From Candidatus Aminicenantes bacterium (GTDB lineage Archaea; Nanobdellota; Nanobdellia; Woesearchaeales; JAFCCF01), in assembly GCA_017610325.1 (NCBI GenBank), contig JAFCCF010000004.1:1-37978 (forward strand): a stretch of DNA of 37,978 bases, read 5' to 3'. The notes beneath the pieces are model-generated. The model saw only the letters and a program-made list of their open reading frames with translations, did not search any database and was not told the DNA's origin. This document shows, piece after piece, positions 7,241 through 32,176 of this stretch. Positions within the stretch are counted from its first letter, which is position 1. Every line of letters starts with the position of its first letter. Made by a program: the position numbers and the translations under genes.

Positions 7241-8772
7241 TGACAGATTATAACCTTGTAAGGATGTACATCATCTTCATAGCACTGGTCATATTTTTCA
7301 TACTTTCATTCAAAAGCCTGAAACAGCAGTTCAAGGGTGTGAACAAATCTGCCTGGGTGCTGCTCCTCATAATCTTCGTGCTTGCGCTTGTTCTCAGGCT
7401 TTCGGTGCCTCATTATTACAAGCTGTACATGGACGAGCCAAGGTATGTTGAGGTTGCCAAGAACATTGTGCTGCATGACCAGGCGCAGATTATGAAGTAT
7501 TACGGGGAATCAACATTCAAGTTCTTTGAGCCGTTCCATCCCATTGCCTGGCCATTCCTGATGTCAGTTGCCTTCAGGGTCTTTGGCATAAATGGCTTTG
7601 TTGCAGGTTATCTCAACACCATTATCAGCAGCCTGGCTGTGCTTATGGTATTCCTCTTTAGTTATCTACTGTTCAAGCGTGAGGATGTTGGGTTATGGGG
7701 TGGCTTGCTCCTTGCCTTAAATCCATTGCATGTGCACTGGTCCACAAGCGCAGGTGTTAATGCACCCTCGCTGTTTTTCATGCTCCTTTCACTTACAGCA
7801 TTTATCATATACTGTAGAAATAGGGATATAAAATTGCACCTGCTCGCAACATTCAGCTTTCTTTTCTCTGTGTTAATGAGGTTGGAATATGTAATGGTAT
7901 TTGTTCTGGTTGCATCAATCTACATGCTACACTGGAAGACCATAAAAAAAGAGGTAAGGAAACTAAGGTTCTGGTTGCCCTGGCTTGGCATTTTGCTGTT
8001 CTACAGGAATTATTACACAACCCTAATGCTTTTCATCAACAAGCTTAGGATAAATGGGGTAGCCCTGGTATTTGCAAGCAGTTCAGGCAGCTTTGGGCTG
8101 TCAAAGATTGTGTCTAACATTGGTTTGTTGTTTCAACACATCCTGAAAACCTACTCCCTAATGCTATTGGTGTTCATGTTAATCGGAATCTATGCAATAT
8201 TCAGAAAGAGAAAATCAGTCTTGCTGATGTTGCTTATATGGTTTGTTGTTTTCTCCGGCTTTTACATGAGCTATGTACAGTTCCAAGAAAGGCACCTATT
8301 ATTCCCAATGTTGGCGTTCCAGTTAGTTATTGCCTTTGGCATATCTTATGTGCTCAAGCTCAAGCAGGTAAAAAGATATAGGCAGCTTCTTGTAGCGGTG
8401 CTGGTAATCTTGATTGTAATCTTTATGGTGCCCAGGCTTTTGCTAATCTATAACATCACTGACTCCAATCTGCTCCAGACACAGGTTCCTGAGATTACAG
8501 AAGCAGCAGCACAGGATTGTTATATTGTGGCAAGCAGGCCAGCGCTGGTAAGCAGCTCAGCAGACCTGAAAGTTATCCCGCTTGATTATTTCCTTGCAAA
8601 TGATTTGGTGTTTTCCGGGCTGGCTGGTGAGTGTGTGCTGTTGTACAATGGCTCATACCTTTCCTCAGAAGACTTCCATGCAGTAAATGAGAAGTATGTT
8701 CTTGAAACATTCATTGACTTTAGAAGAGGAAACACTGTCTTTAGCCTTTACAATATCTCAGCTAAAGGTTGA
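7240..8772 (+). CDS. GT-C fold membrane glycosyltransferase (ArnT/PMT_2-like)
   Basis: Many hydrophobic helices; LVLRL...YMDEPRY first-loop DE motif; HP.AWP; LLLALNPLH; late ERHLL motif. Confidence 0.8.
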   Translation: MTDYNLVRMYIIFIALVIFFILSFKSLKQQFKGVNKSAWVLLLIIFVLALVLRLSVPHYYKLYMDEPRYVEVAKNIVLHDQAQIMKYYGESTFKFFEPFHPIAWPFLMSVAFRVFGINGFVAGYLNTIISSLAVLMVFLFSYLLFKREDVGLWGGLLLALNPLHVHWSTSAGVNAPSLFFMLLSLTAFIIYCRNRDIKLHLLATFSFLFSVLMRLEYVMVFVLVASIYMLHWKTIKKEVRKLRFWLPWLGILLFYRNYYTTLMLFINKLRINGVALVFASSSGSFGLSKIVSNIGLLFQHILKTYSLMLLVFMLIGIYAIFRKRKSVLLMLLIWFVVFSGFYMSYVQFQERHLLFPMLAFQLVIAFGISYVLKLKQVKRYRQLLVAVLVILIVIFMVPRLLLIYNITDSNLLQTQVPEITEAAAQDCYIVASRPALVSSSADLKVIPLDYFLANDLVFSGLAGECVLLYNGSYLSSEDFHAVNEKYVLETFIDFRRGNTVFSLYNISAKG

Positions 8773-9733
8773 GAACCGCTTTCTTATCTGTAATCTTTTC
8801 ACCAGGCATAGGCCTAAGCTCATCTACACCATAATGTTCTTCATAGTCATCCCACACTCCTTCGCATACAGGGTCAAACTTGCACTGCTTGCAGTTTTCA
8901 TGCTTCCTCTTCATCTCGCCCCGCCTTGTTTTCACAAAGTCAAGGTCTTGGTAGTCCACCCCCCTGAGCTGCATCCTTTCTGTTCGTATAAGCTCAGAGC
9001 TGAAGCGCTCCCTGTCCTTCATGTAGCAGTATGGCACAGACTCTATATTCATTGTCATTCCAAGCTCTATTGTCTTGTCAATCATGTCATATATGTGCTG
9101 CTCAGCCTCGCTGTACTTTGGAACAACATCATAGAAATACTTGCTCGCATTTCCCTGGCCATGCGGAAAAGCCACATTGAGATTTTTTACTCCATATTTG
9201 TGCAGAAGGATTATAGTATCAACAAGATGGGCAAGGTTAATCTTTGATATCACAATCTTTCCATTCACCCTGCAGTTGCCTGTAGCAAGCAGCCTCTTGA
9301 TGCCAGCCATGGTTTGTTTAAATGAACCCTTTACTCTCGTTATCTTGTCATGCACCTCTGCATTTGGGCCGTGTATTGCAATAGAATAGCTGATGAAAGC
9401 AATCTTTGAAACCCTTTCAGTGAATTCCTTATAATAAAACATCCTGCCATTTGTCTGCATTTGAATCTCAAAACCAAGCTGCTTTGCATATTCAATAATG
9501 TCAAACACATCGCCCCTTATAGTTATCTCGCCACCAGTAAGGACAATCACCTTTACACCATCCTGCTTTGCCTGGTTAAGGTCAATCTTTATCTCTTCGA
9601 AGGTGCGGTCAATGCGGATGCCCTGCTGCTCCATTCTTCTTCTGTTGCCTGCTATAACACAATGTATACAATCATTGTTGCATCCCCAGCCAACCTTTAT
9701 GTCAGCATACGGTATCTGGTCAAGCTCTACCAT
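8762..9733 (-). CDS. HxsC-like radical SAM protein (paralog 2)
   Basis: DIKVGWGCNNDCIHC, LTGGEIT, QTNGRMF, IHGPNAEVHDKIT..KGSF.QT..GI, C-terminal CKQCKFDPVCEG; lies downstream of HxsB. Confidence 0.75.
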   Translation of the reverse strand: MVELDQIPYADIKVGWGCNNDCIHCVIAGNRRRMEQQGIRIDRTFEEIKIDLNQAKQDGVKVIVLTGGEITIRGDVFDIIEYAKQLGFEIQMQTNGRMFYYKEFTERVSKIAFISYSIAIHGPNAEVHDKITRVKGSFKQTMAGIKRLLATGNCRVNGKIVISKINLAHLVDTIILLHKYGVKNLNVAFPHGQGNASKYFYDVVPKYSEAEQHIYDMIDKTIELGMTMNIESVPYCYMKDRERFSSELIRTERMQLRGVDYQDLDFVKTRRGEMKRKHENCKQCKFDPVCEGVWDDYEEHYGVDELRPMPGEKITDKKAVLNL

Positions 9734-9735
9734 TT

Positions 9736-10323
9736 TTATTTTATCGCCTTTATGTATATGGTTGTTTTATCAGGAGACTTTTTGCTCACCTGCTTGAGAA
9801 CCTTGCTGAAACCTGCTGTTCTGAGCGCCCTTTCAATGCGGTTGAACCAGAATCCATTAAGGTAATTTGCACGAGAGCCATACACAGTGTCAATCACAGC
9901 TTTTGAATCTTTAATATCTCCCTTGTTAAACCTGATTATAGTGTCAATTATGTCAGGCACCATGATGTGCAGCATCCCCCCTTTCTTTAGCACCCTACAC
10001 CAGTTGCCAAGCGCCTTCTGGTACAGGTTTCTCTCTATGGTGTTAAGTGTATTGTTAGCTAGTATTGTGTCAACAGAACCTATCTTGAAAAATCCAAGTG
10101 TTTTTATATCTCCAACTATCTGCGGCGAGTCAAAGAAATCAGAACCAACCCTGATTGCTTTCTGCTTTAGCTTGTTTCCCAGCTCAATAGACTCAGAACT
10201 CACATCAATGAATATCTTATTCTTATCAATAGCAATATTCTGGAAAACACTGTTCTCTTCTTCCTTAGGTTTATCCTTCGAAAAAAAATTATTAATTACC
10301 TCTCTCATGCTAACCTCTACCAA
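9736..10323 (-). CDS. Degenerate class I methyltransferase-like protein
   Basis: GSVDTILANNTL...WCRVLKKGGMLHIMVPD matches the C-terminal half of a Methyltransf_11 fold; no clear Gly-rich motif I. Confidence 0.6.
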   Translation of the reverse strand: MVEVSMREVINNFFSKDKPKEEENSVFQNIAIDKNKIFIDVSSESIELGNKLKQKAIRVGSDFFDSPQIVGDIKTLGFFKIGSVDTILANNTLNTIERNLYQKALGNWCRVLKKGGMLHIMVPDIIDTIIRFNKGDIKDSKAVIDTVYGSRANYLNGFWFNRIERALRTAGFSKVLKQVSKKSPDKTTIYIKAIK

Positions 10324-11281
10324 GGTTCAGCCACTCTGGGGGAATCTGCGTGATTTTTTCCCCAGCAACAGGCGTGAACTCGTCAAAACCCCTTCTTTCA
10401 GGGTACTCAATCCAGGGACCTTCGCATATCATATCATACCTGCAGTTCGCACATTTAGGACCCTTTTTCTTGGCAATGTTCTTTCTTGTATGCTCATAGC
10501 TTAGATTAATGCCAACCATGTCTCTCAGCTGGCTTGCAACCATCCTCAGCTCTGCTGCCCTCTTCTCCTCTCCAACCAGGAAGCAGAGCGGCACAGCCTC
10601 AAAATCAACCCACATCCCGAGCCTCTTAGATGTTTCAATTGCCTTGTCAATGTTTGGCTTCAGCTCACTATATGTCGGGATAACCTCCTCAAAGTAAAGC
10701 AGGGCATTTCCCTGGCCGTGTGGGAATGCAATATTAACACTTCTAGAACCAAATTTGTGGAACAGCTCCAGAATCTCAGCCAGGTACTCTTGATTATACC
10801 TTGAGATGACTATCTTGCCGCTGACTAGCTGGTTATACTTTTTCAGGTTCTTTATTCCATTTATTGTCTGATCAAATGCTCCCTTTGCTTTTGAAACCTT
10901 ATCATGAATCTCTGGGTTAGGGCCATTCAATGCCACAGTATATGCAGCAGGGCATGCATCTACAATCTTCTTTGTGAATTCTTCATAAGAGAACATCCTA
11001 CCATTTGTCTGGATGCCAACCATCATGCCAAGCTGCCTGGCATGCCTGAGTATTTCAAATATATCCTTCCTGATAGATATCTCTCCTCCAGTCAGCACAA
11101 TCTTTGATATACCGTGGTTTTTAGCCTGCTCCATCTGCTCTAAAACTTCTTGCGTGGAGCGGTCTATATTCTTTCCCTCACTCTTTAGCTGGCGCCGCTT
11201 GTCAGCTATCACGCAATGGATACAGTTATTATTACACGAAAATCCGGTTTTTATATCTGCGTATTTATCTCCTTCAGCCAT
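10310..11281 (-). CDS. HxsC-like radical SAM protein (paralog 1)
   Basis: DIKTGFSCNNNCIHC, LTGGEIS, QTNGRMFSY, AFPHGQGNA, CANCRYDMICEG; closely similar to 8762..9733. Confidence 0.75.
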   Translation of the reverse strand: MAEGDKYADIKTGFSCNNNCIHCVIADKRRQLKSEGKNIDRSTQEVLEQMEQAKNHGISKIVLTGGEISIRKDIFEILRHARQLGMMVGIQTNGRMFSYEEFTKKIVDACPAAYTVALNGPNPEIHDKVSKAKGAFDQTINGIKNLKKYNQLVSGKIVISRYNQEYLAEILELFHKFGSRSVNIAFPHGQGNALLYFEEVIPTYSELKPNIDKAIETSKRLGMWVDFEAVPLCFLVGEEKRAAELRMVASQLRDMVGINLSYEHTRKNIAKKKGPKCANCRYDMICEGPWIEYPERRGFDEFTPVAGEKITQIPPEWLNLGRG

Positions 11282-11294: not shown

Positions 11295-12731
11295 CTATTT
11301 CCCATTTGTCTTCCTTAATCCTGCCCAGCCAAGCAGAATATCCCTGTCTTCCTTGGAATAAAGAATCTTTTTGAATATGTACTCGATCATGCCCTTTCTT
11401 ATTTTGCATTCATGGTCAACTGCAAGTTTTGGCACGACACTGCCCTGCGCCCCGTATGTTGCAACCATACATGTTCCGCAGTACGGATGCCAGGGGCATG
11501 CATCACACATTGAGGCAAAGCCAGATGTCAGGCTGACAATGTCCTTTGCCTTAATCATGATATCTTTATAAGAATGGGTATTGACATTTCCCATCTTGAA
11601 TATATCAAATGACCTTGACTCATCACAGGTGTAGATATCACCATTATAATCATATGAAATCTGCCCAATCAGCGCTCCGCAGGGCGACCCAAAGCATGTA
11701 AATCCTCTTGTCCTATTTGTCAGGAGTCTCCAGAGTATCACCTGAATTTTGCTGTCAAGGAATTTCTTACCTTTCTTGTTAAGCTCAAGCTCATAATCAA
11801 ATACCTTTTTCCAGAATTCAAGGAACTCCTCTGAAGAGTACCCAATTTGTTCCCAGAGCTGTTTTGCAAAACCAGCAAAGTTCAGGTTCCTTGACATTAT
11901 GTTTGAGAAGCCATTCTTCAGGTATTCATCAATAATCTCCCTTGGGTAATTGAGCGATTCTTTTGTTATTGTTGGCAGTGCAGAGAAATTAAAGTCCTTC
12001 TTCAGCTCTTTGAACTTTTTTATAACCTCATCATATGAACTCTTGTGCCCAAAATATTTTCTCTGCTTGTCATGAAGCTTTTTCGGCCCGTCAAGGGATG
12101 AGCAAAACCTGATATTGTTCTTTTTCATGTAATCCTTTATCTCATCTGTGAATCCAACTGCGTTTGTGACAATTATGTACATGAGTTTCTTATTATAGCG
12201 CTTGTTAAGTTCTTGTGAGTATTCATATATGTATTTTATAACCGGGAAATTGAGGAGCGGTTCACCACCCTGGAACTCAATTGTAATATCTCTGGCAGGT
12301 GACTCAAAGAGGAACTCAACTACCTTCTTGGCATCCTCCTTACTCATGTCATACCCTTCTGCCTCTAGCGGCTTTGACTTTGCATGACAGTATACGCATG
12401 TGTGGTTGCATCTTAGGGTTACTGTGATAATGTGCAGACCTGCACCTCTAGATACATGGGCAAACTTGTTCCTGAGCTGCCGCGTGATTGACTCAATATT
12501 GTTCAGCGTTATTATAACTCCTTTTTCTTCCAAAAGCTTGTACAGCTGAGGATCTTCCCTTATCTTATTGTATCTTAGAAGGTCAAACTCTTCTTTGTTC
12601 AGGCACACCCACCCCCCGTGGTCTGTGGTGACAACTATATGTTCTTTATCAAATTTGTGGGTCAGGTACCTATTTACCTCAAACTCTTCTACTTTAACCG
12701 GTCCTTTATCTTCATAAAAACTAAAAGCCAC
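11295..12731 (-). CDS. hxsB: His-Xaa-Ser system radical SAM/SPASM maturase HxsB
   Basis: LHIITVTLRCNHTCVYCHA, IEFQGGEPLLNF, SSLDGPKKLHD, SPCGALIGQISYDYNGDIYTCDESR, CDACPWHPYCGTC; N-terminal extension; GTG 12731 has a GAGGT RBS (ORF open from 12791). Confidence 0.85.
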   Translation of the reverse strand: MAFSFYEDKGPVKVEEFEVNRYLTHKFDKEHIVVTTDHGGWVCLNKEEFDLLRYNKIREDPQLYKLLEEKGVIITLNNIESITRQLRNKFAHVSRGAGLHIITVTLRCNHTCVYCHAKSKPLEAEGYDMSKEDAKKVVEFLFESPARDITIEFQGGEPLLNFPVIKYIYEYSQELNKRYNKKLMYIIVTNAVGFTDEIKDYMKKNNIRFCSSLDGPKKLHDKQRKYFGHKSSYDEVIKKFKELKKDFNFSALPTITKESLNYPREIIDEYLKNGFSNIMSRNLNFAGFAKQLWEQIGYSSEEFLEFWKKVFDYELELNKKGKKFLDSKIQVILWRLLTNRTRGFTCFGSPCGALIGQISYDYNGDIYTCDESRSFDIFKMGNVNTHSYKDIMIKAKDIVSLTSGFASMCDACPWHPYCGTCMVATYGAQGSVVPKLAVDHECKIRKGMIEYIFKKILYSKEDRDILLGWAGLRKTNGK

Positions 12732-12741
12732 TTTTACCTCT

Positions 12742-12975
12742 TTACTGGTTTTGGTTTTGCATAATTCCCAGGAGGCAATCAAAAAATTCATAGCCTATAT
12801 TTGACAATTTGTCTATGTTCTTTGGTATTATGACAACCTTAGTGCTGTGATCTTCAACAGCAACATCACCAAAAGCCTTGAACTCTTCTGCTGCCCTGGA
12901 AACTATCTGTGGTGGATAGATTATTGTGTTAATCTTGATAACACATCTGTTGTCTTCAACCTTGACATTTTTCAT
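12742..12975 (-). CDS. Small HxsD-like protein
   Basis: 77 aa; INTIIYP...AAEEF...IGYEFFDCLL pattern parallels the N-terminal domain of 13003..13575; directly upstream of hxsB. Confidence 0.6.
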   Translation of the reverse strand: MKNVKVEDNRCVIKINTIIYPPQIVSRAAEEFKAFGDVAVEDHSTKVVIIPKNIDKLSNIGYEFFDCLLGIMQNQNQ

Positions 12976-13002: not shown

Positions 13003-13575
13003 TCAGTCATCCCTTCTGGTGTTGTCCTTCATGATTCCCTTTGGATCTGCCACCCGGTCTTCTTCAGGAACCTGCACCTTTCTTATGCCCATTGGGTCAG
13101 GGACATTATCTGTCGGTCTTGGTCCTGGACCTCCTGGTCCCGGGCCACTTGGCTGAGGGAATCTCTGTGGCATTGGTTGTGGCGGGCCTGGCCCTCTCCT
13201 TGGCGGCTCTGGTCCTTTCCTTGGCGGCTCTGGTCCCCTTACATTGCCCCTAAGCGCGCTCTCCATGAGAGCTTCCCTAATTCTCTTGGTCCTTGTTGCC
13301 TGTATTGTATAGATTGAGTAGTTTATTAGCTCATCATTAAAGTTATAACCTATCTCTTTCAAATTCTTTTCACTAATCTCCCCATCAGCTTTTGGTCTTA
13401 GTTCAACCAGCACCTCGCTGTTTGGGTCACCATCAATAATAACATGGACCTTGTCCAGCATTGCATATGCTGCAGAGTAAATCACGCTCACTGGATAAAA
13501 TTTAGGATTCACAGATATAACTAAAAAATTTTTATGGATTTCAATATTATCCAAAATACTTTCTTTCTCACCCAT
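13003..13575 (-). CDS. hxsD: His-Xaa-Ser system protein HxsD with Pro/Gly-rich C-terminal tail
   Basis: VNPKFYPVSVIYSAAY...FNDELINYSI...TKRIREALMESAL resembles the HxsD consensus; tail GPEPPRK-GPEPPRR-GPGPP. Confidence 0.75.
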   Translation of the reverse strand: MGEKESILDNIEIHKNFLVISVNPKFYPVSVIYSAAYAMLDKVHVIIDGDPNSEVLVELRPKADGEISEKNLKEIGYNFNDELINYSIYTIQATRTKRIREALMESALRGNVRGPEPPRKGPEPPRRGPGPPQPMPQRFPQPSGPGPGGPGPRPTDNVPDPMGIRKVQVPEEDRVADPKGIMKDNTRRDD

Positions 13576-13603
13576 ATTAAACCCCCCAGTATATTATGTT
13601 CGA

Positions 13604-13630
13604 TTTAGACGATAACCCCCATATTTATAA
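13604..13630 (-). promoter_or_regulatory. TATA-like box plus TTATCGTCTAAA motif upstream of the hxsD operon
   Basis: Minus strand reads TTATAAA-8nt-TTATCGTCTAAA, ending ~30 bp before ATG 13575; same motif and spacing at 32216 and 35244. Confidence 0.5.
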
Positions 13631-13930
13631 ATCTTTGGTTTTAATTCATAGTTGGCCAAACTTGCTGTTAGCACGCTACTTTTTCTTCTATATTTTCATC
13701 ACCTATCTTTAACGAAACTACCTTTAAATCAAAAACTTTAAATATGAGGTGCCTACTTATATGGTTTAGAATAAGTGATAGAGATAATTGGGCGAGTATA
13801 TTTGTCTAATTAAGGGAAGTGTGGCGCAATAAATGAGTATTAAAAAGAGGTTTGTTTTATTAAGTAGACTTATGTATTTTTCTATCTCAAATAATCATTA
13901 TCATAGTTTTTATTCCATTAACCTGTTACG

Positions 13931-14101
13931 TTCTTTGCGCCACACTTCTGTCTCTGCACATCAGCAGAGGCAGAAGTTTTTAATTTCCCGTTCTTTGCGC
14001 CACACTTCTGTCTCTGCACATCAGCAGGGGCAGAAGTTTTTTCCTTCCTATTCATTGCGCCACACTTCTGTCTCTGCACATCAGCAGGGGCAGAAGTTTT
14101 T
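13931..14101 (+). repeat. Three tandem 60-bp units, each a 14-bp hairpin followed by a T tract
   Basis: TTC(T/A)TTGCGCCAC-ACTTCTGTCTCTGC-ACATCA-GCAG(A/G)GGCAGAAGT-TTTT at 13931, 13991 and 14051; ~9-nt variable gaps. Confidence 0.95.
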
Positions 14102-14162
14102 ATTTTCAGGCGCTTTAAAATATTTGTTTGAATCAAGCTGATAAAAAAGAAGGTGTTGACAG

Positions 14163-17093
14163 ATTAACAAAAAAGAGGCAGAGAGTAATAAGGCTTTTAC
14201 AGATATCAGGAGGCCTACCCTTCTCTCACACATAAAGAAAGCAATCACTTCTTTCGTTAAGGAAGAGGAAGCCTCAATTAACAAGCATGCTCTGCTTAGC
14301 GTTGGTAGTTTTATGGCTGCAGGTGTCATTGCATCACGGGTTGTTGAGGCATCTCAGGTTGTTGTCACGCACGACCATAGTGATATAGGTCATAGTAATT
14401 GCACATATCCAGACACCCATGACAACTGCCATACACAGAGCCACAGCAACTGCGCTTATCCAGAAACCCATGACAACTGTACATATCCAGACACCCATGA
14501 CAACTGCCATACTGTGAGTCATAGCAACTGCCATTCTAACTGCTCCTATCCAGATTATCACAACAACTGTTCATACCCTGAATCAACTTCACCTGACACA
14601 CACGACAACTGCCATACTGAGAGCCATAGCAACTGCCACTCTAACTGTACTTATCCTGACACGCACGACAACTGCCACTCTAACTGTACTTATCCAGAAT
14701 CCACTGCTCCAGAGACGCATGACAACTGCCATACTGTGAGCCATAGCAATTGCCACTCTAACTGTTCTTATCCAGATTCCCACAACAACTGCTCATACCC
14801 AGAATCAACTTCTCCTGACACGCATGACAACTGCCACACGCAGAGCCATAGCAACTGCCATTCTAACTGTGGTTATCCAGAATCCACTTCACCTGACACG
14901 CACGACAACTGTTCGTATCCAGAATCCACTGCTCCAGAGACGCATGACAACTGCCATACTGAGAGCCACAGCAACTGCCATTCTAACTGCTCCTATCCAG
15001 AATCGCACGACAACTGCCATTCTAACTGTACTTATCCAGAATCCACTTCACCTGACACGCACGACAACTGCCATACTGTGAGCCATAGCAACTGCCACTC
15101 TAATTGTAGTTATCCTGAGTCACACTCAAACTGCCACTCTAACTGCTCATACCCAGAATCCACTTCACCTGACACGCACGACAACTGCCACACGCAGAGC
15201 CACAGCAACTGCCACTCTAATTGTGGTTATCCAGAATCCACTTCACCTAATACGCACGACAACTGCTCATACCCAGAATCCACTTCACCTAACACGCACG
15301 ATAACTGCCACACTGTGAGCCACAACAACTGCCACTCTAATTGTGGTTATCCAGATTCCCACAACAACTGCTCATACCCTGAATCAACTGCTCCAGAGAC
15401 GCACGACAACTGCCATACTGTGAGCCACAGCAACTGCCACTCTAATTGTGGTTATCCAGATTACCACAACAACTGCAGTTATCCGCAGTCCCACGACAAC
15501 TGCCATACCTCAGGTCACAACAACTGCAGTTATCCGCAGTCCCACGACAACTGCCATACCGCAGGCCACAATAACTGTGGTTATCCAGAATCGCACAGCA
15601 ACTGCCACAGTAACTGTTCCTATCCAGAATCCACTGCCCCAGGTTACCATAACAACTGCCACTCAAACTGCTCTTATCCAAATTCCGTTAATCCAAACAC
15701 CCACAACAACTGCCACTCAAACTGCTCTTATCCAAATTCTGGTAATCCAAACACCCACAACAACTGCACCTATGTGAATGCCCACAGCAACTGCCACTCT
15801 AACTGTACTTATCCAGCATCCCAATCTCCAGCTGCTCATTCTAACTGCCACAGTAACTGTTCCTATCCAGAGTCCACTGCTCCAAACACCCACACTAACT
15901 GCCACTCTAATTGTGGTTATCCAGACTCCACTGCCCCAAATTACCACAACAACTGTAGCTATCCGCAGTCCCATGATAACTGCCATACCTCAGGCCACAA
16001 TAATTGTAGTTATCCAGAATCGCACGACAACTGCCATACCTCAAGCCACAATAACTGCTCCTATCCGCAGTCCCACGACAACTGCGCATACCCTGAATCC
16101 ACTTCCCCAAACACCCATGACAACTGCCATACTGAGAGCCATAGCAACTGCCACTCTAACTGTACTTATCCTGACACGCACGACAACTGCCACTCTAACT
16201 GTACTTATCCAGAATCCACTTCACCTGATACGCACGATAACTGCCACACTGAGAGCCACAGCAACTGCCACTCTAACTGTACTTATCCAGAATCAACTTC
16301 TCCAAATACGCACGACAACTGCTCTTATCCAGAATCCACTTCACCTGACACGCACGATAACTGCCACACTGAGAGCCACAGCAACTGCCATTCTAATTGT
16401 GGTTATCCAGAATCCACTTCACCTGACACGCACGATAACTGCTCTTATCCAGAATCCACTTCTCCAGAGACGCACGACAACTGCCATACTGAGAGCCACA
16501 GCAACTGCCACTCTAACTGCTCCTATCCAGAATCGCACGACAACTGCCATTCTAACTGTACTTACCCAGAATCCACTGCTCCAGAGACGCATGATAACTG
16601 CCATACTGAGAGCCACAGCAACTGCCATTCTAACTGCTCCTATCCAGAATCACACGACAACTGCTCATACCCGGACTCAACTTCACCTGACACGCACGAT
16701 AACTGCCACACTGAGAGCCACAGCAACTGCCATTCTAACTGTACTTACCCAGAATCCACTGCTCCAGAATCGCACGATAACTGTACATACCCTGACTCAA
16801 CTTCACCTGACACACACGACAACTGCCATACTGAGAGCCACAGCAACTGCCACTCTAACTGTTCCTATCCAGAATCACACGACAACTGCTCATACCCTGA
16901 ATCAACTGCTCCAGAGACGCACGACAACTGCCATACTGTGAGCCACAGCAACTGCTCCTATCCTGAGTCGCACTCAAACTGCGAATCTCCTGATACTCAC
17001 GATAATTGTCACACCCAGAGCCACAGCAACTGTACATATCCTCAGGAAGACCCATCGCACACATCATCCATTGATGTTACAAACACGGAGTAG
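14163..17093 (+). CDS. Giant His-x-Asn-Cys repeat protein; putative substrate (HxsA-like precursor) of the Hxs maturases
   Basis: About 101 H[S/D/N/T]NC motifs by manual count, with synonymous codon variation among repeats. First ATG is 14313, but the frame is open from 14160 and ATT 14163 lies 7 nt after AGGTG, adding a leader-like 50 aa. Confidence 0.85.
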   Translation: MNKKEAESNKAFTDIRRPTLLSHIKKAITSFVKEEEASINKHALLSVGSFMAAGVIASRVVEASQVVVTHDHSDIGHSNCTYPDTHDNCHTQSHSNCAYPETHDNCTYPDTHDNCHTVSHSNCHSNCSYPDYHNNCSYPESTSPDTHDNCHTESHSNCHSNCTYPDTHDNCHSNCTYPESTAPETHDNCHTVSHSNCHSNCSYPDSHNNCSYPESTSPDTHDNCHTQSHSNCHSNCGYPESTSPDTHDNCSYPESTAPETHDNCHTESHSNCHSNCSYPESHDNCHSNCTYPESTSPDTHDNCHTVSHSNCHSNCSYPESHSNCHSNCSYPESTSPDTHDNCHTQSHSNCHSNCGYPESTSPNTHDNCSYPESTSPNTHDNCHTVSHNNCHSNCGYPDSHNNCSYPESTAPETHDNCHTVSHSNCHSNCGYPDYHNNCSYPQSHDNCHTSGHNNCSYPQSHDNCHTAGHNNCGYPESHSNCHSNCSYPESTAPGYHNNCHSNCSYPNSVNPNTHNNCHSNCSYPNSGNPNTHNNCTYVNAHSNCHSNCTYPASQSPAAHSNCHSNCSYPESTAPNTHTNCHSNCGYPDSTAPNYHNNCSYPQSHDNCHTSGHNNCSYPESHDNCHTSSHNNCSYPQSHDNCAYPESTSPNTHDNCHTESHSNCHSNCTYPDTHDNCHSNCTYPESTSPDTHDNCHTESHSNCHSNCTYPESTSPNTHDNCSYPESTSPDTHDNCHTESHSNCHSNCGYPESTSPDTHDNCSYPESTSPETHDNCHTESHSNCHSNCSYPESHDNCHSNCTYPESTAPETHDNCHTESHSNCHSNCSYPESHDNCSYPDSTSPDTHDNCHTESHSNCHSNCTYPESTAPESHDNCTYPDSTSPDTHDNCHTESHSNCHSNCSYPESHDNCSYPESTAPETHDNCHTVSHSNCSYPESHSNCESPDTHDNCHTQSHSNCTYPQEDPSHTSSIDVTNTE

Positions 17094-17107: not shown

Positions 17108-18190
17108 ATGAACATAATCACTATATTATCTCTCTTAAGGCCCTACATATTGTTTGCAATAATCATTGCTCTTGGAATTATAGCTTCATACACTGATGTT
17201 AAAAAAAGGAGGATTGAGAACAGGTTTGTGATTCCTGCCTTTATAATTGGGCTGCTTATCAACCTAACTTACTGGGGCATGGATTTTCTGGGGCACTACC
17301 TCTTTGGCGTTCTCTTTGCGCTGTTTGTGACTTTTGTGTTGTGGTATGTAGGGTTCTGGAATGCAGGGGATGGCAAGCTTTTTCTTGCATTTACCAGCCT
17401 GATTCCAGCAGCGTTGTTGTATGGCGGTGTTGCGCAGCTTCACTCATACTGGATAATCTTCTACACATTTGTACCTGTGTTCTTTGTTCTTCTGGTGCTA
17501 CTGATAATTCATACCAGGTGGAAAGACATAAAATATGTATTAAAGGAGTTTATCAAGCCACAGGCAATATTCCTTGTGATGCTGGCTTTCTTTGCATTTC
17601 AGTGGATTATCCATATCTTCAACGATGCAACCGGCATTACCCTTAACTTCTTTATCAGCGTGCTAATCCTGTTCTTTTTCTTTGAGGCTATGGAAAAGAT
17701 ATTACCGTTCAGGATAATGTCAATATTTGTTATTGTTGCAATCTCCAGGTTTATCATTGACTTCCGCACCATTTTCACATTTGATTTTGTTATAGTCTTT
17801 TTTCTTCAATTCTCTGTTTTCATAATAATGGTATATTTCATACTCCATCTTGCCTATGTGAAATATGGTAAGCATGCTAAGATCCAAGACCTTAAGCCAG
17901 GCATGTTACTGTCTGAAATCATCTACAAGAAGGGAAAGGTTTACGCAACCAGGCCAAATGTGCAGATAAGCCTCTTCATGTTCCTCAGGACAAAGGTGAA
18001 AGAAAAGCCGCTTATTGAGATTACTTCCAATGGTTTGACTAGGGAAGATATTGAACTGCTAAAAAGATTGCACAGGGAAAAAAAGCTGGAGGTTGGCTCT
18101 TTGCTTGTTCAGATGAGGATACCATTTGCACCTTTCCTGTTCCTTGGCGTAGTGTTATATATACTTACAGAACTTCTTCATGTTTTTTAG
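17108..18190 (+). CDS. A24-family prepilin/preflagellin-type aspartic peptidase
   Basis: ASYTDVKKRRIEN (first Asp), WNAGDGKLF (GxGD-type second Asp), multiple TM helices, C-terminal IPFAPFLFLG. Confidence 0.88.
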   Translation: MNIITILSLLRPYILFAIIIALGIIASYTDVKKRRIENRFVIPAFIIGLLINLTYWGMDFLGHYLFGVLFALFVTFVLWYVGFWNAGDGKLFLAFTSLIPAALLYGGVAQLHSYWIIFYTFVPVFFVLLVLLIIHTRWKDIKYVLKEFIKPQAIFLVMLAFFAFQWIIHIFNDATGITLNFFISVLILFFFFEAMEKILPFRIMSIFVIVAISRFIIDFRTIFTFDFVIVFFLQFSVFIIMVYFILHLAYVKYGKHAKIQDLKPGMLLSEIIYKKGKVYATRPNVQISLFMFLRTKVKEKPLIEITSNGLTREDIELLKRLHREKKLEVGSLLVQMRIPFAPFLFLGVVLYILTELLHVF

Positions 18191-18354: not shown

Positions 18355-18378
18355 CCAGAATTGTTTAGGTTGTATAGA

Positions 18379-19266
18379 ATGCAGGCTTCAGACTTTCCAG
18401 AAAGAATTCAGATACAGACACACTCATACTGTAATGCTCGCTGCATCATGTGTGCGTATCCCGATACTGTTGGCACCTTCAAAGGCGGGTTTATGGATGA
18501 GGACCTGTTCGTGAAGATAATAAATGAGTGCTCCAAGCACCAGCTTGAGAAAATAGAGCTTTTCCTGATGAACGAACCGTTGATGGACAAGAGAATTGCT
18601 GACCGGATAAGATACGCAAAGAAAAAGAACCCAAATACAATCATAAGTCTGTCAACCAATGCCAGCCTTCTGGATGCTGGGCTGGCAGACAAGCTCATCT
18701 ATTCCGGCCTTGATTGGATTACCCTGAGTGTTCATGGTGTAAGCAAGGAAGTATATGAAAAGATAATGGTTGGTCTGGACCATGATAAGGTGTTCACCAA
18801 CATAAACACATTCTTGTCAAAGCTTAAAAAGAGCGGTAAACAGATTATAGTTAATCTAGTCTGCAAAGAAGCCCTGTTGTCTGAGAGTGAACAGGAACTT
18901 ACAAAGAAATACTGGGGGGAGCGCGGGCAGAAGATTCATATGGGTCTAGTAAACAACAGGGCCGGCAATGTTGAAGGGTATGATGAGCTTGTACCACAAT
19001 CCTTTGACGTGTTTCCACACTGTACAAGGCCCTTTTGGTTTGCAGGAATCCTATTCAACGGCGATGTTGTGATGTGTTGTATGGATTACAAGAGAGAGGT
19101 TATATTGGGAAATGTAAAAAATAGCTTAATCCAGGATATTTGGAAAGGCGACAAGTATACAAAACTTAGAGATGCTTTTACCAAAAAAGATAAAGAAGGT
19201 CTTTTGCTATGCAAAAAGTGTGTGATGAATAAGGTCCCAGATAAAGAACATCTTTGTAAGATTTAG
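18379..19266 (+). CDS. Radical SAM protein with SPASM-type C-terminal domain
   Basis: CNARCIMC, MNEPL, STNA, NRAG, CTRPF...NGDVVMCCMD...GN...CKKC; ATG 18379 preferred over TTG 18361. Confidence 0.9.
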   Translation: MQASDFPERIQIQTHSYCNARCIMCAYPDTVGTFKGGFMDEDLFVKIINECSKHQLEKIELFLMNEPLMDKRIADRIRYAKKKNPNTIISLSTNASLLDAGLADKLIYSGLDWITLSVHGVSKEVYEKIMVGLDHDKVFTNINTFLSKLKKSGKQIIVNLVCKEALLSESEQELTKKYWGERGQKIHMGLVNNRAGNVEGYDELVPQSFDVFPHCTRPFWFAGILFNGDVVMCCMDYKREVILGNVKNSLIQDIWKGDKYTKLRDAFTKKDKEGLLLCKKCVMNKVPDKEHLCKI

Positions 19267-19314: not shown

Positions 19315-21255
19315 ATGGTTAATTTAATGCTGACCTATCATTGTAATATGAATTGCGATTTTTGTTTTGCTAAAGGTCAGAATAAACTATTCCCCCAGGA
19401 GATGAGCATTGAGAACCTTAATAAGGTTCTTAACTGGTTTGAGAAGGGTGAGGCTGGCAGGCAGCTACCACAGCAAAGGAGGAAGAAAATCTCCCTGCTT
19501 GGGGGAGAACCCACGCTTCACTCAAAATTCCTGGAGATTATTGACCTGCTCAGGCAGAGGGGCTTTAAGACCACAATATTCAGCAATGGAATTTTTCCCA
19601 GCGAGTACATAAAGCACCTTGACCATAATGTTATCAACGGCTTTGTGATTAATTATAACCCTGAGAAACACTATACCAAAGAAAATTACAAGAGAGTTCA
19701 TGAAAACCTGCGCCTTCTCTCAGAGCAGAAGTATCCAATTAAGCTGAGCTATAATATTTCCCCTACTAACTATGACCCCGGCTACATATTCAAGGCATGC
19801 AAGGAATACAACATTAATGTTTTAAGGTTTTGTATCGCAAGCCCTAATATTGACCAAAGCAACGTGTTTGCAGAATACAAAGATTATAGAAAGCTCATAA
19901 AGAAGATGATTGAGTTTGTCAAGGAAGCTAAAAAGAAGAAAATCAAACTGACTTTTGACTGTTGCATGCCCTGGTGCCTGCTTACAAAGGAAGAGCTTCT
20001 TATTATAAAAAAATATTCTCAGATTTTCAAAGGCACCTGCGACCCGCCAGCTGACATTAATCCTGACCTTTCAGTATACTACTGTCTGCCGCAGTCATGG
20101 GTCAAGGTAAAAAATGTAACTGATTTTGGCTCTGTCGATGATATGCTAAAATATTTTAAAGAGCATACAAACAAGATAAGGTGGGAATATGATACCTTTA
20201 TCGAATGTAAGGACTGTATCTACAAGAAGAGAAAGATGTGCCAGGGTGGCTGCCTGGCTATGAAAGAGAAATTTGGTTATACTGCAACAGGAAAAAGGCT
20301 GAGCAATAAAGATTTCTTTAAGGAGGACAGCTTACAGCAGCAAAAGGCAGACACCAAAGAGGAGATTACAGCCCTTAAGAAGATTGGTATCAGGATATGG
20401 GGCGGCATTGGAGACGGCATGATGTTCTCGCCAACACTACGGAAGATAAAGCAACTAAATCCCAGTATGAAAATTTACTGTGTCGGCGGCAAGAATCATA
20501 GAGAGATATTCGAAAACAGCCCTTACATTGATAAGTTTACTATATCACCTGATAATTCTGCGTTTGAAGGTGATTTTGACAAGGCATACAGCACAAACTA
20601 TAGGATTCTTGAGCCAAGCTTGAATTTCAAGAAACATGGTATAGATATAATCGCAGAGGAACTTTTTGGGATTAAGCTTGATGAGGATGAGAAAAGGATT
20701 GATGTCTTTCTTGAGAAAGAGGATGAGCAATTTGCCAAGAGGGTGATTTCAAAACATAAAAATCCTGTTATACTGGCAATATCATCCCAGACAAGCACCA
20801 ACCAAGAGTGGGATATCCAGAAATGGAAAGAGCTTGTGAGCAGGTTTGATGACTACACATTCATCCAGCTTGGTGTGCAAGGGGAGCCTCATGTAATGGG
20901 TAGTATTAATATGCTTGGCAAGACAACAGTAAGGCAGGCGGTTGCGCTTGTGAAGTACGCAAAGCTCTTTGTTGGTGTTGATAGCTTCCTGAACCATGCA
21001 ACAAATGCAACAGCAACACCAGGTGTGGTGCTGTTCGGTAACTCAACACCTGTTATATGGGGTTATAAATCAAATACTAATATATATCGAGGCTTTAGTT
21101 GTCAGCCATGCGTTGACAAGGAGGGTGGCCTTGAGCCCTGCAGCCATAAAAAGTGTTTGAATGACATCAACGTGGATGAGGTTTACTATGCGGTCAGGGC
21201 CAAATTAAGAGAACCTGTTGCTAAAATGTTAGCAGCGGGCGAGATGCAAAAATGA
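19315..21255 (+). CDS. Fusion of a radical SAM/SPASM domain and a GT9 (heptosyltransferase-like) domain
   Basis: N-terminal CNMNCDFC, LLGGEPTLH, CKDC...CQGGC; C-terminal GGIGDGMM, QEW...W, FVGVDSFLNH, VVLFG, CQPC...CL. Confidence 0.85.
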   Translation: MVNLMLTYHCNMNCDFCFAKGQNKLFPQEMSIENLNKVLNWFEKGEAGRQLPQQRRKKISLLGGEPTLHSKFLEIIDLLRQRGFKTTIFSNGIFPSEYIKHLDHNVINGFVINYNPEKHYTKENYKRVHENLRLLSEQKYPIKLSYNISPTNYDPGYIFKACKEYNINVLRFCIASPNIDQSNVFAEYKDYRKLIKKMIEFVKEAKKKKIKLTFDCCMPWCLLTKEELLIIKKYSQIFKGTCDPPADINPDLSVYYCLPQSWVKVKNVTDFGSVDDMLKYFKEHTNKIRWEYDTFIECKDCIYKKRKMCQGGCLAMKEKFGYTATGKRLSNKDFFKEDSLQQQKADTKEEITALKKIGIRIWGGIGDGMMFSPTLRKIKQLNPSMKIYCVGGKNHREIFENSPYIDKFTISPDNSAFEGDFDKAYSTNYRILEPSLNFKKHGIDIIAEELFGIKLDEDEKRIDVFLEKEDEQFAKRVISKHKNPVILAISSQTSTNQEWDIQKWKELVSRFDDYTFIQLGVQGEPHVMGSINMLGKTTVRQAVALVKYAKLFVGVDSFLNHATNATATPGVVLFGNSTPVIWGYKSNTNIYRGFSCQPCVDKEGGLEPCSHKKCLNDINVDEVYYAVRAKLREPVAKMLAAGEMQK

Positions 21256-24987: not shown

Positions 24988-26372
24988 ACATTGCATTAAT
25001 ATATCCGAGGCTAAAATATCCGTCAGGCGACCCTCCACTTGGTCTTGCCTCTCTTGCATCTTCTGTTCTAACTAATCTCAAAAATGTTGAAGTGAATCTG
25101 ATTGACCTTACATTTCACGCAAGCCTTGATTATCTGAAAGATATTTTCAGGAAACATAAATATGATTTGGTCTGCCTGACAGCAGCCACAATCTTTATGC
25201 CAGATGTGCTCAAGATAGCTAAGCTGTGCAAAAAGTTGCAGCCTGGCTGTAAGATTATTATTGGCGGGCCCCATCCCTCATCTGACCCAGAGGATGCAAT
25301 AGGGCATAGGGAAATTGATGGAATTGTGATAGGTGAGGCTGAAGAAACCTGTGTTGAGATTGTAAAGGCATTTCTGGACAATGGGGAACTGTCAACTGCC
25401 AGGGGATTCTGGTTCAAGAAAGGAAAAAAGATTATCAGGAGTGAAAGAAGAGAGCCAATCAAAGACCTTGACAAGGTGCCTTTTCCAGCATGGCACCTGC
25501 TAGAGATGGAGAAATACTTTAAGTATTGGTTCCAGATGGACTGTGTATCACTTAACCTGAGAGGCACATCAATGGTTGCTTCCAGGGGCTGCCCCTATAA
25601 ATGCTCATTTTGCCAGCCTACCTTGTGGAACATGTTTGGAAGAAAAATCAGGTACAGGAGCACAGGCAATGTTGTTGATGAGATTGCTGAACTGAAAAAA
25701 AGGTATAATGTGAGTGCTGTGTGGTTTGTGGATGACACATTTACAATTGATAAAAGATGGGTCAAGGAATTCTGTGAAAAGCTGATTAACCGCAGGCTTA
25801 ATATTGTGTGGGGCTGTACAATACGAGCTAATCTTGCTGATAAAGACTTGTTGAGGCTCATGAAAAAATCAGGCTGCAGACTAATTGGAATTGGAATTGA
25901 ATCTGCAAGCCAGAGAATCCTGGATGAAATATATAATAAGAATATTAAGGTAGCTCAGGTTAAGGAGGCAGTCAGGGTAACGCACTCCTTAGGCATCAAA
26001 CTCAGGGGGCAGTTCATGATAGGTGCTCCAACCGAGACCCTGGAAGAGATTAAAAGGACAATAAGGTTTGCCTATAAGCTGGACCTTGATGAGGCAACTT
26101 TCTCGATAACATCCCCATTGCCGCACACATTCCTATATGAAATGGCTAAGAAAAAGGGCTGGCTTAATGTTAAGGGCTATTCAAGCTTTGATTATTATGA
26201 TAATTATGCATTTAAGCCAACAGCTGGCCTGGACACTAAAGCCCTTATCAAGCTGAAGAGAAAGGCGTTCATTAAGTTTTATTCCAGGCCAAGAAGGTTC
26301 ATTGCCCTGGTCAAGAACTTGCTTAACCCAAGGGCATTCAGGCACAACATGCTCAAGCTTAAGAGGTTTTGA
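24984..26372 (+). CDS. Cobalamin-binding-domain radical SAM protein
   Basis: PPLGLASLA, IIGGPHP, GEAE, SRGCPYKCSFC, GIES, FMIGAPTET. Confidence 0.92.
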   Translation: MNIALIYPRLKYPSGDPPLGLASLASSVLTNLKNVEVNLIDLTFHASLDYLKDIFRKHKYDLVCLTAATIFMPDVLKIAKLCKKLQPGCKIIIGGPHPSSDPEDAIGHREIDGIVIGEAEETCVEIVKAFLDNGELSTARGFWFKKGKKIIRSERREPIKDLDKVPFPAWHLLEMEKYFKYWFQMDCVSLNLRGTSMVASRGCPYKCSFCQPTLWNMFGRKIRYRSTGNVVDEIAELKKRYNVSAVWFVDDTFTIDKRWVKEFCEKLINRRLNIVWGCTIRANLADKDLLRLMKKSGCRLIGIGIESASQRILDEIYNKNIKVAQVKEAVRVTHSLGIKLRGQFMIGAPTETLEEIKRTIRFAYKLDLDEATFSITSPLPHTFLYEMAKKKGWLNVKGYSSFDYYDNYAFKPTAGLDTKALIKLKRKAFIKFYSRPRRFIALVKNLLNPRAFRHNMLKLKRF

Positions 26373-27850: not shown

Positions 27851-29204
27851 AGAAAAGAAAAGTATCATGGCACTTTGCTGTGCTTATTTTGCTGATACTT
27901 GCATATTTTGCTGTATTTTCATATTTCACAGTCCAGAGATACAATGCCTATGTGCCAGCAGCCTATGACCTTGGTGTATGGACACAGACCTTGTGGAATG
28001 CTGCACATGGCAATGGCTTTGTGAATTCAATAGAGTTCCTGCCGCATTTTGGCTTGCATGTTAACCTTATCCTTATTCCATTTGTACCCTTGTACTGGTT
28101 GTTTGGAACTCCAGTGTTTCTGCTCATGTTGCAATCAGCAATGCTTGCAATAGGTGCCCTTCCATTATACCTGCTGGCTGTTATGAAACTCAAGAATAAG
28201 ATTGCTGGCCTGGTGTTTGCAGCTGTTTACCTGCTCTATCCATCACTGCACAATATTAATTTATTTGATTTTCATGCAATTGCACTTGTTATACCTTTTT
28301 TATTGTTCATGTTCTATTTTTTTGAAAAAAAGAATTACAGGGCAATGTTTATGTTTGCTGTTCTTGCACTTAGCTGTAAGGAGGATGTTGCTCTGGTGGT
28401 GCTATTCTTTGGCCTGTATGTTCTGCTCATCAGGAAACTGAGAAAAATAGGTGTTGCTGTCGCTTGCCTAGCTTTGCTGTGGCTAATTATGTCATTTTTT
28501 GTTATTATTCCAAGCTATGGCTCATCTTTTGAGCTGTCCAGCGACAATCGCTATTCTAAGTTTGGCAACACCCTCACAGAGGTAGCAGTTAATGTTATTG
28601 CAAAGCCTGGCTTGACTCTCTCTACTTTATTTTCACCTGGCTTCTCATAGCATTGCCTGTTTTTATGCAGAACATGCTGTCAAACCAGCCTGCAATGTAC
28701 AGCTCTATGTACCACTATGACTGTACTATTATTCCGTTTGTGTTTATTGCTGGTATATTCGGGTTAGGTTATCTGATGTCAAAGCTGTCAGGCAAGAAAC
28801 TGAAGAGCCGTGTGCTCATGATTATCCTTGTTATTGTACTGCTAAAGTCATCTGCTGCTTTCTATTATGGCAGTGGTCTTGGGCCTAGCAAGTACACGCC
28901 AGGCATTTACGCTGTTACTGAGCATAACCAGCTTGCCAATGAGGTGATTAAGGAGATTCCTGAAGATGCGTCTGTGCTCACAACTACTTTTATCATGCCG
29001 CATATAGCAAACAGGAAAGATATATTTGTGTTTCCGCAAAAGGTTGAGGCAGATGTTGTGCTGTTTGACCTGAGCATTACACCATATAAACTTACCCCAA
29101 AAACATATAAGGAAGAACTGTATAAATACAACAAGAGCAGTGATTACGAGCTGGTGCTTGAGAAGGGAGATTTTATCATGTTCAAAAAGAGGTTATTATC
29201 ATAA
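27847..29204 (+). pseudogene. Second DUF2079-like paralog split by an internal deletion/frameshift (ORFs 27847..28650 and 28653..29204)
   Basis: The two halves align to consecutive parts of 26372..27850; ~23 codons are missing between TLFSP and LLIALPVFMQN, with a frame change near 28638. Confidence 0.75.
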
Positions 29205-32133: not shown

Positions 32134-32144
32134 CCTACATAAAA

Positions 32145-32176
32145 AAACGTAAATACGTTTAAATATTTAAATATTT
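32145..32176 (-). promoter_or_regulatory. Palindromic operator and TATA-like box of the antitoxin-PIN operon
   Basis: AAACGTA-AA-TACGTTT next to AAATATTTAAATATTT, just upstream of the antitoxin start. Confidence 0.5.

Follow-up and report, generated by a model that had tools for sequence, protein, structure and literature searches.

A putative very large, cysteine-bearing substrate of a variant Hxs radical SAM system in an archaeon, with a doubtful start codon

The closest described relatives of the locus considered here are the Hxs (HXS) systems, whose protein families were defined by Haft and Basu in 2011, according to a passage of PMC9062424. Excerpts of a paper by Li et al. (Nat Commun 2026, PMC13128918) describe Hxs as an antiphage system of Pseudomonadota that blocks DNA entry and in which HxsB, HxsC, and HxsD mature a secreted protein, HxsA, that bears five His-x-Ser repeats. 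The same excerpts report that 99.6% of HXS systems have the D-B-C gene order and that 99.7% are found in Pseudomonadota. Here we describe a gene on contig JAFCCF010000004.1 (assembly GCA_017610325.1), a stretch of 37,978 nucleotides that is called the window below, which encodes a repeat protein with 101 His-x-Asn-Cys modules (the HxNC protein). Because this protein of roughly 950 residues adjoins Hxs radical S-adenosylmethionine (SAM) enzymes, it is most likely a hugely expanded, Cys-bearing version of HxsA. We consider it likely that the HxNC open reading frame (ORF) encodes the HxsA-type substrate of an archaeal Hxs variant system, which would be directed by its leader, held on the cell surface, and processed by a peptidase of family A24.

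The likeness to the canonical HXS families (TIGR03976-03979) extends to both the enzymes and the substrate. HxsB scores above its curated cut-off, HxsD-like and HxsC-like genes stand with it in the D-B-C order, and the substrate combines an N-terminal export-type signal, tandem His-containing repeats, and a predicted N-terminal processing step. There are several differences. The host is archaeal, the unit is H-x-N-C repeated 101 times rather than H-x-S repeated five times, and the substrate has 926-962 residues, lacks a peptidoglycan-binding domain, and is strongly acidic rather than basic. Additionally, the substrate gene lies on the opposite strand, and two HxsC-like genes, a methyltransferase, and a dedicated A24 (prepilin-type) peptidase are present. 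The locus is best classed as an Hxs variant and not as a member of the equivalog families, because HxsB and the gene order agree with the family definitions whereas HxsC, HxsD (narrowly), and HxsA fall below their curated cut-offs. The models HxsA3 (NF038309), HxsA4 (NF038313), and HxsC4 (NF038332), compared by model names and scores, lead to a similar picture. The leader in the window matches HxsA3 best and the HxsC-like proteins match HxsC4 best, but the scores are under the cut-offs (25 of 65 bits for the leader, 137 and 133 of 500 bits for the HxsC-like proteins), and the HxsA3 and HxsA4 models describe proteins of 81-93 positions, whereas the array here has 900 residues. The source genome (1.12 Mb in 98 contigs, 86% completeness) is assigned to an archaeon because it encodes ribosomal protein L31e, a family that matches only the 4 archaeal of 14 control genomes.

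The identification of the HxNC protein as a substrate comes from its leader and its position. The region 14205-14450 matches NCBIfam HxsA3 with an E of 1.1e-5 (25.2 bits, cut-off 65). A hidden Markov model (HMM) built from 13 small HxsA-like leaders, all from other genomes, was run against the 592 ORFs of the window and gave a single match, to the HxNC frame (E 9.4e-6, residues 24-58 of the open frame), which falls mostly upstream of the ATG at 14313. The leader alignment found one place only in the whole assembly, and that place is the HxNC gene. HxsB is also present in one copy in the assembly. Because the only HxsA-type leader in the window and in the assembly lies beside the only HxsB, the HxNC protein is very probably a radical SAM substrate. 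This agrees with an earlier note on this DNA, made from the letters alone, in which motifs of the protein were suggested as possible targets for several of the radical SAM enzymes; the Hxs identity of these neighbours, the leader upstream of the ATG, and the A24 peptidase go beyond that note.

The coordinates of the gene, its parts, and its neighbours are collected in Table 1. The homologous start is an ATC codon (14205-14207), which aligns exactly with the start ATG of four relatives from metagenomes and sits 19 residues before a conserved E-E-G/A. The reading frame is open from 14163 (977 codons in total), and its first canonical ORF runs from the ATG at 14313 to 17093 on the plus strand and encodes 926 residues. 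The candidate membrane anchor or signal core that follows the leader reaches a Kyte-Doolittle 19-residue maximum of 1.74 at residues 29-47, and a hydrophobic stretch is found at the matching position in 17 aligned leaders. At the other end, the C-terminal tail has counterparts in two related genomes, G335 and G175, whose proteins end in NPSHTDSITVSNTED and NPSHNDSITVTNTED, respectively.

Table 1. Features of the HxNC locus and of related hairpin arrays. Positions refer to the window unless a contig is named.
Feature	Position	Strand	Basis or remark
HxsC-like radical SAM protein 2	8762..9733	-	HxsC4 132.6 bits and HxsC 84.2 bits, each under its cut-off
Class I SAM methyltransferase, flanked by the HxsC-like genes	9736..10323	-	Pfam Methyltransf_11 31.7 bits
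HxsC-like radical SAM protein 1	10310..11281	-	HxsC4 NF038332 137 bits (cut-off 500); HxsC TIGR03977 97.1 bits (cut-off 267.9)
HxsB radical SAM/SPASM maturase	11295..12791	-	TIGR03978 419.9 bits (cut-off 370), profile 6-466 of 466
HxsD-like small protein with Pro/Gly-rich C-terminal extension	13003..13575	-	TIGR03976 46.5 bits (cut-off 50), E 3.5e-12, profile 4-86 of 90
Hairpin array of three 60-nt units in tandem, each with a 14-bp hairpin and then a T run	13929..14107	+	Upstream of HxNC gene; folding z -10.2
Proposed full HxNC repeat gene	14205..17093	+	962 codons counted from ATC 14205
HxsA-type leader, 27 residues, IRRPTLLSHIKKAITSFVKEEEASINK	14205..14285	+	Wholly upstream of first ATG; HxsA3 match, leader HMM
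Hydrophobic segment, residues 28-47, candidate membrane anchor or signal core	14286..14345	+	Kyte-Doolittle; leader alignment
Core, 101 H[S/D/N/T]NC modules with linkers of 0, 4, 5 or 10 residues	14391..17033	+	Regular-expression count
C-terminal tail ending DPSHTSSIDVTNTE	17034..17090	+	Kept in relatives G335 and G175
A24 (prepilin-type) aspartyl peptidase, archaeal C-terminal domain, candidate leader peptidase	17108..18190	+	15 nt after HxNC gene
Radical SAM/SPASM protein 3' of peptidase	18361..19266	+	35% identical homologue on G335 Hxs contig
Hairpin array, contig L044	2922-3266		6.9 units of 50 nt
Hairpin array, contig L042	9802-9987		3.9 units of 48 nt
Hairpin array, contig L043	2625-2872		1.9 units of 132 nt

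The repeat core follows a strict grammar. A regular-expression count on the 926-residue ORF gives exactly 101 H.NC motifs (HSNC 51, HDNC 36, HNNC 13, and HTNC 1), and all 101 Cys of the protein lie inside them. Asn is invariant in the 101 modules. The 100 gaps between motifs have four lengths only, 0 (n=27), 4 (n=23), 5 (n=23), and 10 (n=27) residues. All 23 four-residue linkers match HT.[SG] (20 are HT.S), and they are the only literal H-x-x-S units in the protein. The pattern.YP.. fits 21 of the 23 five-residue linkers, the exceptions being TYVNA and ESPDT, and.YP.S..P.. fits 27 of 27 ten-residue linkers. The linkers follow each other in super-units such as 4-0-5-0-10 and 4-0-10-10. The ORF contains no Lys, Leu, Phe, or Trp, one Arg, one Met, three Ile, and 15 Val, and there are 112 acidic residues (Asp and Glu) to one basic residue (Lys and Arg). 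His (127) and Cys (101) occur in H-x-x-C spacing, and in 50 of the 101 modules the Cys directly precedes a His. These counts reproduce what had been read by eye in the earlier note: about 101 motifs holding every Cys, the four linker lengths and their patterns, and a core with no Lys or Arg and almost no aliphatic residues. The 5' end given there for the core (14391) is also retained, but the 3' end (17045) lies 12 nt too far since the last motif ends at 17033.

The number of motifs is far from what composition would produce, as H.NC motifs averaged 1.9 and never exceeded 7 in 2000 shuffles of the protein, against the 101 observed. AlphaFold2, run on residues 1-222 as a single sequence without an alignment, returned a mean predicted local distance difference test score (pLDDT) of 36.9 with one weak helix at residues 6-22, and the core showed no fold (pLDDT about 30). 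We rejected the idea that Asn is kept purely as an N-glycosylation sequon (N-C-S/T), because the sequon is found in only 41 of the 101 modules, yet Asn is present in all of them.

At the DNA level the modules are diverse. The motif is encoded by 28 different 12-mers, and the gene uses both His codons (CAC 84, CAT 43) and all six Ser codons (AGC 40, TCA 37, TCT 36, TCC 36, AGT 9, TCG 8). Modules of equal length (classes with n=27, 23, 23, and 27) were compared by the Nei-Gojobori method, which gave proportions of synonymous differences (pS) of 0.50-0.75 and of nonsynonymous differences (pN) of 0.07-0.19, with a nonsynonymous to synonymous rate ratio (dN/dS) of 0.04-0.17; pN is biased downward because the modules were defined by the motif, and the linkers, counted within this comparison, give the same picture as the motifs. 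These values support purifying selection on the protein rather than a slippage-prone DNA, in line with the earlier suggestion that the codons vary synonymously while the protein is conserved. The longest exact DNA repeat in the array is 102 nt, only 2 of 2679 101-mers recur, and blocks of 247-300 nt are 60-92% identical to each other. The array therefore appears to be old and diverged, not a run of identical units, and should in principle be resolvable by short reads.

HxNC arrays were found in six relatives. Four are metagenome contigs (L042-L045) that share the leader at 55-61% identity and carry 3, 12, 15, and 24 HxNC units before the contig ends. They were obtained by a metagenome scan with the leader alignment, together with an unrelated contig (L046); a scan with a single sequence gave none. 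The other two, G335 and G175, are genomes of one genus that belongs to another family of the same order. Both hold the C-terminal end of an HxNC array that is directly followed by an A24 peptidase, with HxsD, HxsB, and HxsC on the same contig. In the cores of all six relatives every Cys lies within HxNC, Lys and Arg are absent, Tyr is absent, and Pro occurs at most once (0-1). The linkers are 9 or 11 residues long and of the type [S/T]-H-x-S-x-T-G.., and the Cys precedes [S/T]-His. The x position of the motif is S, D, or N in the window and T, V, A, I, or N in the relatives. Because the relatives keep H-x-N-C yet differ in linkers and at x, His, Asn, and Cys form the conserved unit, with x and the linkers free and the Tyr-Pro linkers specific to one lineage. 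The earlier note had envisaged two aromatic-x-x target classes, H-x-N and Y-P-D/E; the second is not a feature of the family given the Tyr and Pro counts of the relatives.

The distribution of the arrays was also examined in 401 genomes sampled from one phylum. Of these, 4 matched a DNA pattern made for three HxNC units (G000 with 74 matches, G335 with 8, G187 with 2, and G175 with 1), and the reversed control matched 1. G187 was discarded as a carrier; its matches fall in a 24-nt DNA repeat, and no listed ORF of at least 50 residues reads as an HxNC protein. In an HxsB tree of 19 rows, from which loci L024, L029, and L033 were left out (stop codons in the range or as a precaution), a branch with 100/100 support unites the window, G335, and G175; it represents two independent lineages at most because G335 and G175 are congeners. 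Synteny with these two genomes reaches past the Hxs core and takes in two SPASM proteins, at 3-1532 (48% identity, 502 bits) and at 18361, a radical SAM protein fused to a GT9 domain (40%), membrane proteins of the PMT_2 and DUF2079 types, and B12 radical SAM genes. Upstream in L042 there are three B12 radical SAM genes and a PMT_2-like gene.

Protein searches returned little beyond the leader. The whole HxNC protein, compared with near-length members of 5.8 billion clustered proteins, gave 5159 candidates and none at E <= 0.001, and among the shorter members the leader region matched P0003 alone. An exhaustive search of 1.84 billion representatives gave 7 matches at E <= 0.001, and only P0003, which aligns with the window frame upstream of the first ATG, shares the leader (P0001 was not inspected). 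P0002, P0004, P0006, and P0007 proved on reading to be unrelated low-complexity proteins and were set aside. The ESM Atlas held no usable match. As a query against whole genomes, the HxNC protein found 0 of 40 relatives and gave 5 weak, leader-only matches in 400 other genomes of the order; these blanks say nothing about the repeats because the query also misses the array that is plainly present in G335. Leader searches of species-representative genome contigs and of viral contigs found none.

On the minus strand, from 13575 to 8762, the genes run D, B, C, methyltransferase, C, which is the canonical HxsD-HxsB-HxsC order, with the HxNC gene divergent and not last. The HxsD-like protein is 57-58% identical to the G175 and G335 copies, and HxsC-like protein 2 is 46-47% identical to their HxsC. 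HxsC4 and then HxsC are the best-scoring families for both HxsC-like proteins, though under the cut-offs. The methyltransferase is a candidate member of the system by its position; no homologue of it was seen in 20 HxsB loci of relatives. The HxsD-like protein also carries a repetitive, Pro/Gly-rich C-terminal extension of ~70 residues (GPEPPRKGPEPPRRGPGPP...) beyond the 90-position profile.

The nature of the modification can be approached through the families that come next to HxsB. After TIGR03978, the window HxsB scores best with the thioether maturases PapB (161 bits, cut-off 340), SCIFF maturase (131.8, cut-off 425), CcpM (109.3, cut-off 500), and CefB (95.9), and the nearest solved structure is 5wgg (E 2.4e-27), which we take to be the SCIFF thioether maturase CteB. 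The substrates are alike in that each HxNC module offers one Cys, but they differ in that the precursor here has 926-962 residues and is not short. No enzyme of the window reaches the cut-off of any of these thioether families (SCIFF/CteB, PapB of ranthipeptides, CcpM, CefB), nor those of the cyclophane synthases GrrM/OscB (81.4 of 310 bits), YhhB (70 of 445), and AmcB (60.1 of 425); cyclophane and thioether links had been named as possibilities in the earlier note. To our knowledge, no thioether has been demonstrated for any Hxs enzyme. HaaB and HtkB are three-residue cyclophane (triceptide) synthases that act on His, according to a passage of PMC11499958. The HxNC motif shares the aromatic-x-x form (His-x-Asn) and its presence many times per precursor with the triceptides, but the conserved fourth residue, Cys, has no counterpart there.

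Archaeal class III (prepilin-like) signal peptides are cut by A24 peptidases such as EppA, FlaK, and PibD. The HxNC locus resembles these systems in that an A24 peptidase with both catalytic Asp residues and the archaeal C-terminal domain adjoins the substrate gene, and in that a hydrophobic stretch comes after a charged N-terminus in the substrate. It differs in that the usual Lys/Arg-Gly/Ala cleavage motif is not evident in the HxNC leader, where the conserved motif is E-[E/D]-G-x-I-S-K. The peptidase scores above the cut-offs of Pfam PF01478 (45.2 bits) and PF06819 (38.9 bits), while it reaches 56 of 450 bits with the EppA model and 22 of 330 with the FlaK model. Of its 14 homologues at Hxs loci, 13 retain D30 and all 14 retain D88. 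No pilus assembly genes were found in the window.

The association of these genes recurs in the phylum. HxsB scores over its cut-off in 41 of the 401 sampled genomes, and 20 HxsB loci were fetched from those 41 for the counts that follow. HxsD is present at 17 of the 20 loci and an A24 peptidase homologue at 13, in 11 cases no more than 1.4 kb from HxsD. Nine loci have between one and five HxsC-like paralogues, and at 15 a small ORF with the same type of leader stands beside HxsB (the search model had been built with 4 of these 15). Their leader consensus, P-K-I-K-K-K-I-x-S-F-L-x-x-E-E-G-K-I-S-K, is followed by a hydrophobic stretch. The small neighbours match HxsA3 or HxsA4 best, and their cores vary, some being His-x-Ser runs that end in Ser-Trp or Ser-Tyr and others being Cys-rich. 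Taken together, the archaeal cassette consists of an A24 peptidase, HxsD, HxsB, a leader-bearing substrate, and at least one HxsC-like enzyme. As side observations, at several of the loci L023, L024, L029, L032, and L033 a single HxsB is accompanied by a row of three to five HxsC-like paralogues, and the substrate cores contrast sharply, with long cores rich in Cys, tails of poly-Gly, and runs of His-x-Ser that end in Ser-Trp; the type of substrate core tracks the HxsB branches in the tree.

The mechanism that we propose replaces the usual handful of His-x-Ser repeats by 101 His-x-Asn-Cys modules. The HxNC protein would be made with the N-terminal leader typical of the family and, behind it, the hydrophobic segment. 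HxsB, both HxsC-like enzymes, and the HxsD-like protein would work on it in the cytoplasm in a leader-dependent way, so that each module receives a single covalent change. For the bond, our preferred guess is a cross-link through the sulfur of Cys, because the thioether maturases are the next-nearest HxsB families and 5wgg is the nearest structure. The adjacent A24 membrane peptidase would then cut off the leader, and the hydrophobic segment would hold the long, very acidic chain, rich in His, Cys, Ser, and Thr, on the cell surface, where the Ser/Thr/Pro linkers are probably glycosylated by GT-C-type enzymes of the island. The best guess for the final role is a metal-binding or protective surface polymer. 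A more far-reaching version, which we put forward tentatively and regard as doubtful, is that H-x-N-C is the recognition unit of an undescribed radical SAM reaction that cross-links the Cys sulfur to His or Asn 101 times, that the product is a stapled metal-binding surface polymer of a DPANN-type archaeon, and that the A24 enzyme is the leader peptidase of a protein-sized peptide made on the ribosome and modified after translation (RiPP).

Several observations weigh against the assignment of the HxNC protein as an HxsA-type substrate. There is no ATG, GTG, or TTG in the open frame between 14163 and 14313, and translation from the first canonical start, ATG 14313, would strip the leader, so that the gene may be poorly translated or recently disabled. 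Either a non-canonical start codon is used, or the start was recently lost, or a base of the sequence is in error. The HxsC-like, HxsD-like, and leader matches are all under curated cut-offs, and the whole HxNC protein matches no family in NCBIfam (even at E 10) or in Pfam. Each of the six relatives is cut within its array by a contig end, and none is of full length. The excerpts of Li et al. (PMC13128918) also give the comparison limits: the chemistry of E. coli HxsB and HxsC is unsolved there, with just +8 Da on one repeat and no reconstitution, and the only HxsA studied is basic and is proposed to bind DNA by its charge. That DNA-binding model is not transferable to the HxNC protein of this uncultivated archaeon because of its 112 acidic residues against one basic.

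The doubtful start is also the point from which the gene can be read as dead or mis-assembled, with its start lost (ATG to ATC) or its array a product of assembly, so that no protein is made. The interruption of every relative within the array fits this idea as well. However, the frame has stayed open for 977 codons, the modules diverge mainly at synonymous sites, the flanks are unique within a 38-kb contig in which no exact repeat of the array exceeds 102 nt, and both the conserved tail and the downstream peptidase are intact. We consider a dead or artificial gene very improbable. If a protein is made, it could instead be an unmodified metal-binding surface protein, a store or scavenger of Zn, Ni, Cu, or Fe, while the radical SAM enzymes serve the glycans or lipids of the envelope. 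The abundance of His and Cys, the H-x-x-C spacing, and the frequent Cys-His (Cys-[S/T]-His in the relatives) would suit a metal site, the island is full of glycosyltransferases and B12 radical SAM enzymes, and a core pLDDT of about 30 is expected of a chain that orders only upon binding. Against this, the protein has an Hxs-type leader, the only one in the assembly, HxsB co-varies with the type of core, and metal binding does not need the Asn that is invariant in 101 modules; we therefore think this explanation unlikely.

The modular grammar, with its few linker classes, and the leader-dependent radical SAM enzymes alongside also recall multi-core RiPP precursors, in which case the modified chain would be cut into many small HxNC peptides that are then released. 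The sole protease of the conserved set is the A24 membrane peptidase, however, which acts at N-terminal signals, and since the linkers differ completely between lineages there is no conserved cleavage site. The conserved C-terminal tail and the N-terminal hydrophobic segment point to a protein that stays intact, and release of small peptides seems improbable to us. A leader-directed Hxs substrate that is retained whole at the surface is the reading that we prefer.

A hairpin array precedes the HxNC gene at all four loci with an assembled 5' end (the window, L044, L042, and L043). Each unit consists of a CA-rich motif and a hairpin of 10-14 bp, with folding energies for single units of -16 to -23 kcal/mol (z -5.4 to -10.7). 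From locus to locus the stems vary in sequence and yet remain complementary; one L042 unit carries G-C at a pair that is C-G in the other units of that contig. The distance from the end of the array to the ATG is 13 nt in L044 and L042, and in the window the array stops ~100 nt short of ATC 14205. An inverted copy of the 5' motif of the unit is found at 13819-13829 in the window and also upstream in L044. An Rfam search of 13576-14420 gave no match. The array would be either an element of the 5' untranslated region or a set of protein-binding sites. Just 5' of it, the three metagenome relatives have a conserved ORF of ~50 codons (L044 2567-2719, L042 9447-9605, L043 about 2280-2435) with weak, below-cut-off similarity to RelB/DUF6364-like proteins of the ribbon-helix-helix type; the window has the divergent HxsD gene in its place.

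The island around the HxNC gene is rich in glycosyltransferases and B12 radical SAM enzymes, and a radical SAM domain was found in 11 of the 30 window ORFs scanned. PADLOC reported just a generic viperin-type radical SAM similarity. The fusion protein, which joins a radical SAM domain to one that resembles GT9 heptosyltransferases, is encoded at 19315-21255 (plus strand), and its radical SAM part is 40% identical to a product of 18690-19640 of L069, the HxNC contig of G175. A heptose-1-phosphate adenylyltransferase is encoded at 29417-29887 (TIGR02199, 205 bits, over the cut-off). Next to an intact DUF2079 gene (26369-27850), a second DUF2079 gene is broken into two ORFs in different frames, 27847-28650 and 28653-29204, which match positions 8-241 and 270-449 of the profile; the split would reflect a sequencing error, a frameshift, or a pseudogene. 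A stretch of low GC content at ~32000-35100 (28-35% versus about 42% elsewhere) encodes an MntA-like nucleotidyltransferase, a DUF6036 nucleotidyltransferase, and a TrmB/Lrs14-like regulator, and could represent a mobile or toxin-antitoxin insert at the island's edge.

As judged from these comparisons, the HxNC protein is most likely an archaeal, Cys-bearing variant of the Hxs substrate that is new and very large and whose start codon is doubtful. A literature search returned nothing relevant on archaeal HxsA, on the HxNC motif, or on a prepilin peptidase with radical SAM leader peptides. With this protein, the range of the Hxs machinery would take in archaea, units that contain Cys, and substrates of protein size, and a prepilin-type peptidase would be linked to a radical SAM maturation cassette. 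It also offers a route to Hxs chemistry, as the same four-residue site occurs 101 times and short constructs are easily derived; with 101 sites, mass spectrometry and nuclear magnetic resonance would have far more signal per molecule. That a 1.1-Mb genome devotes a 38-kb island with 11 radical SAM genes to one surface protein, as the HxNC product is proposed to be, suggests that this protein is important for the cell envelope.

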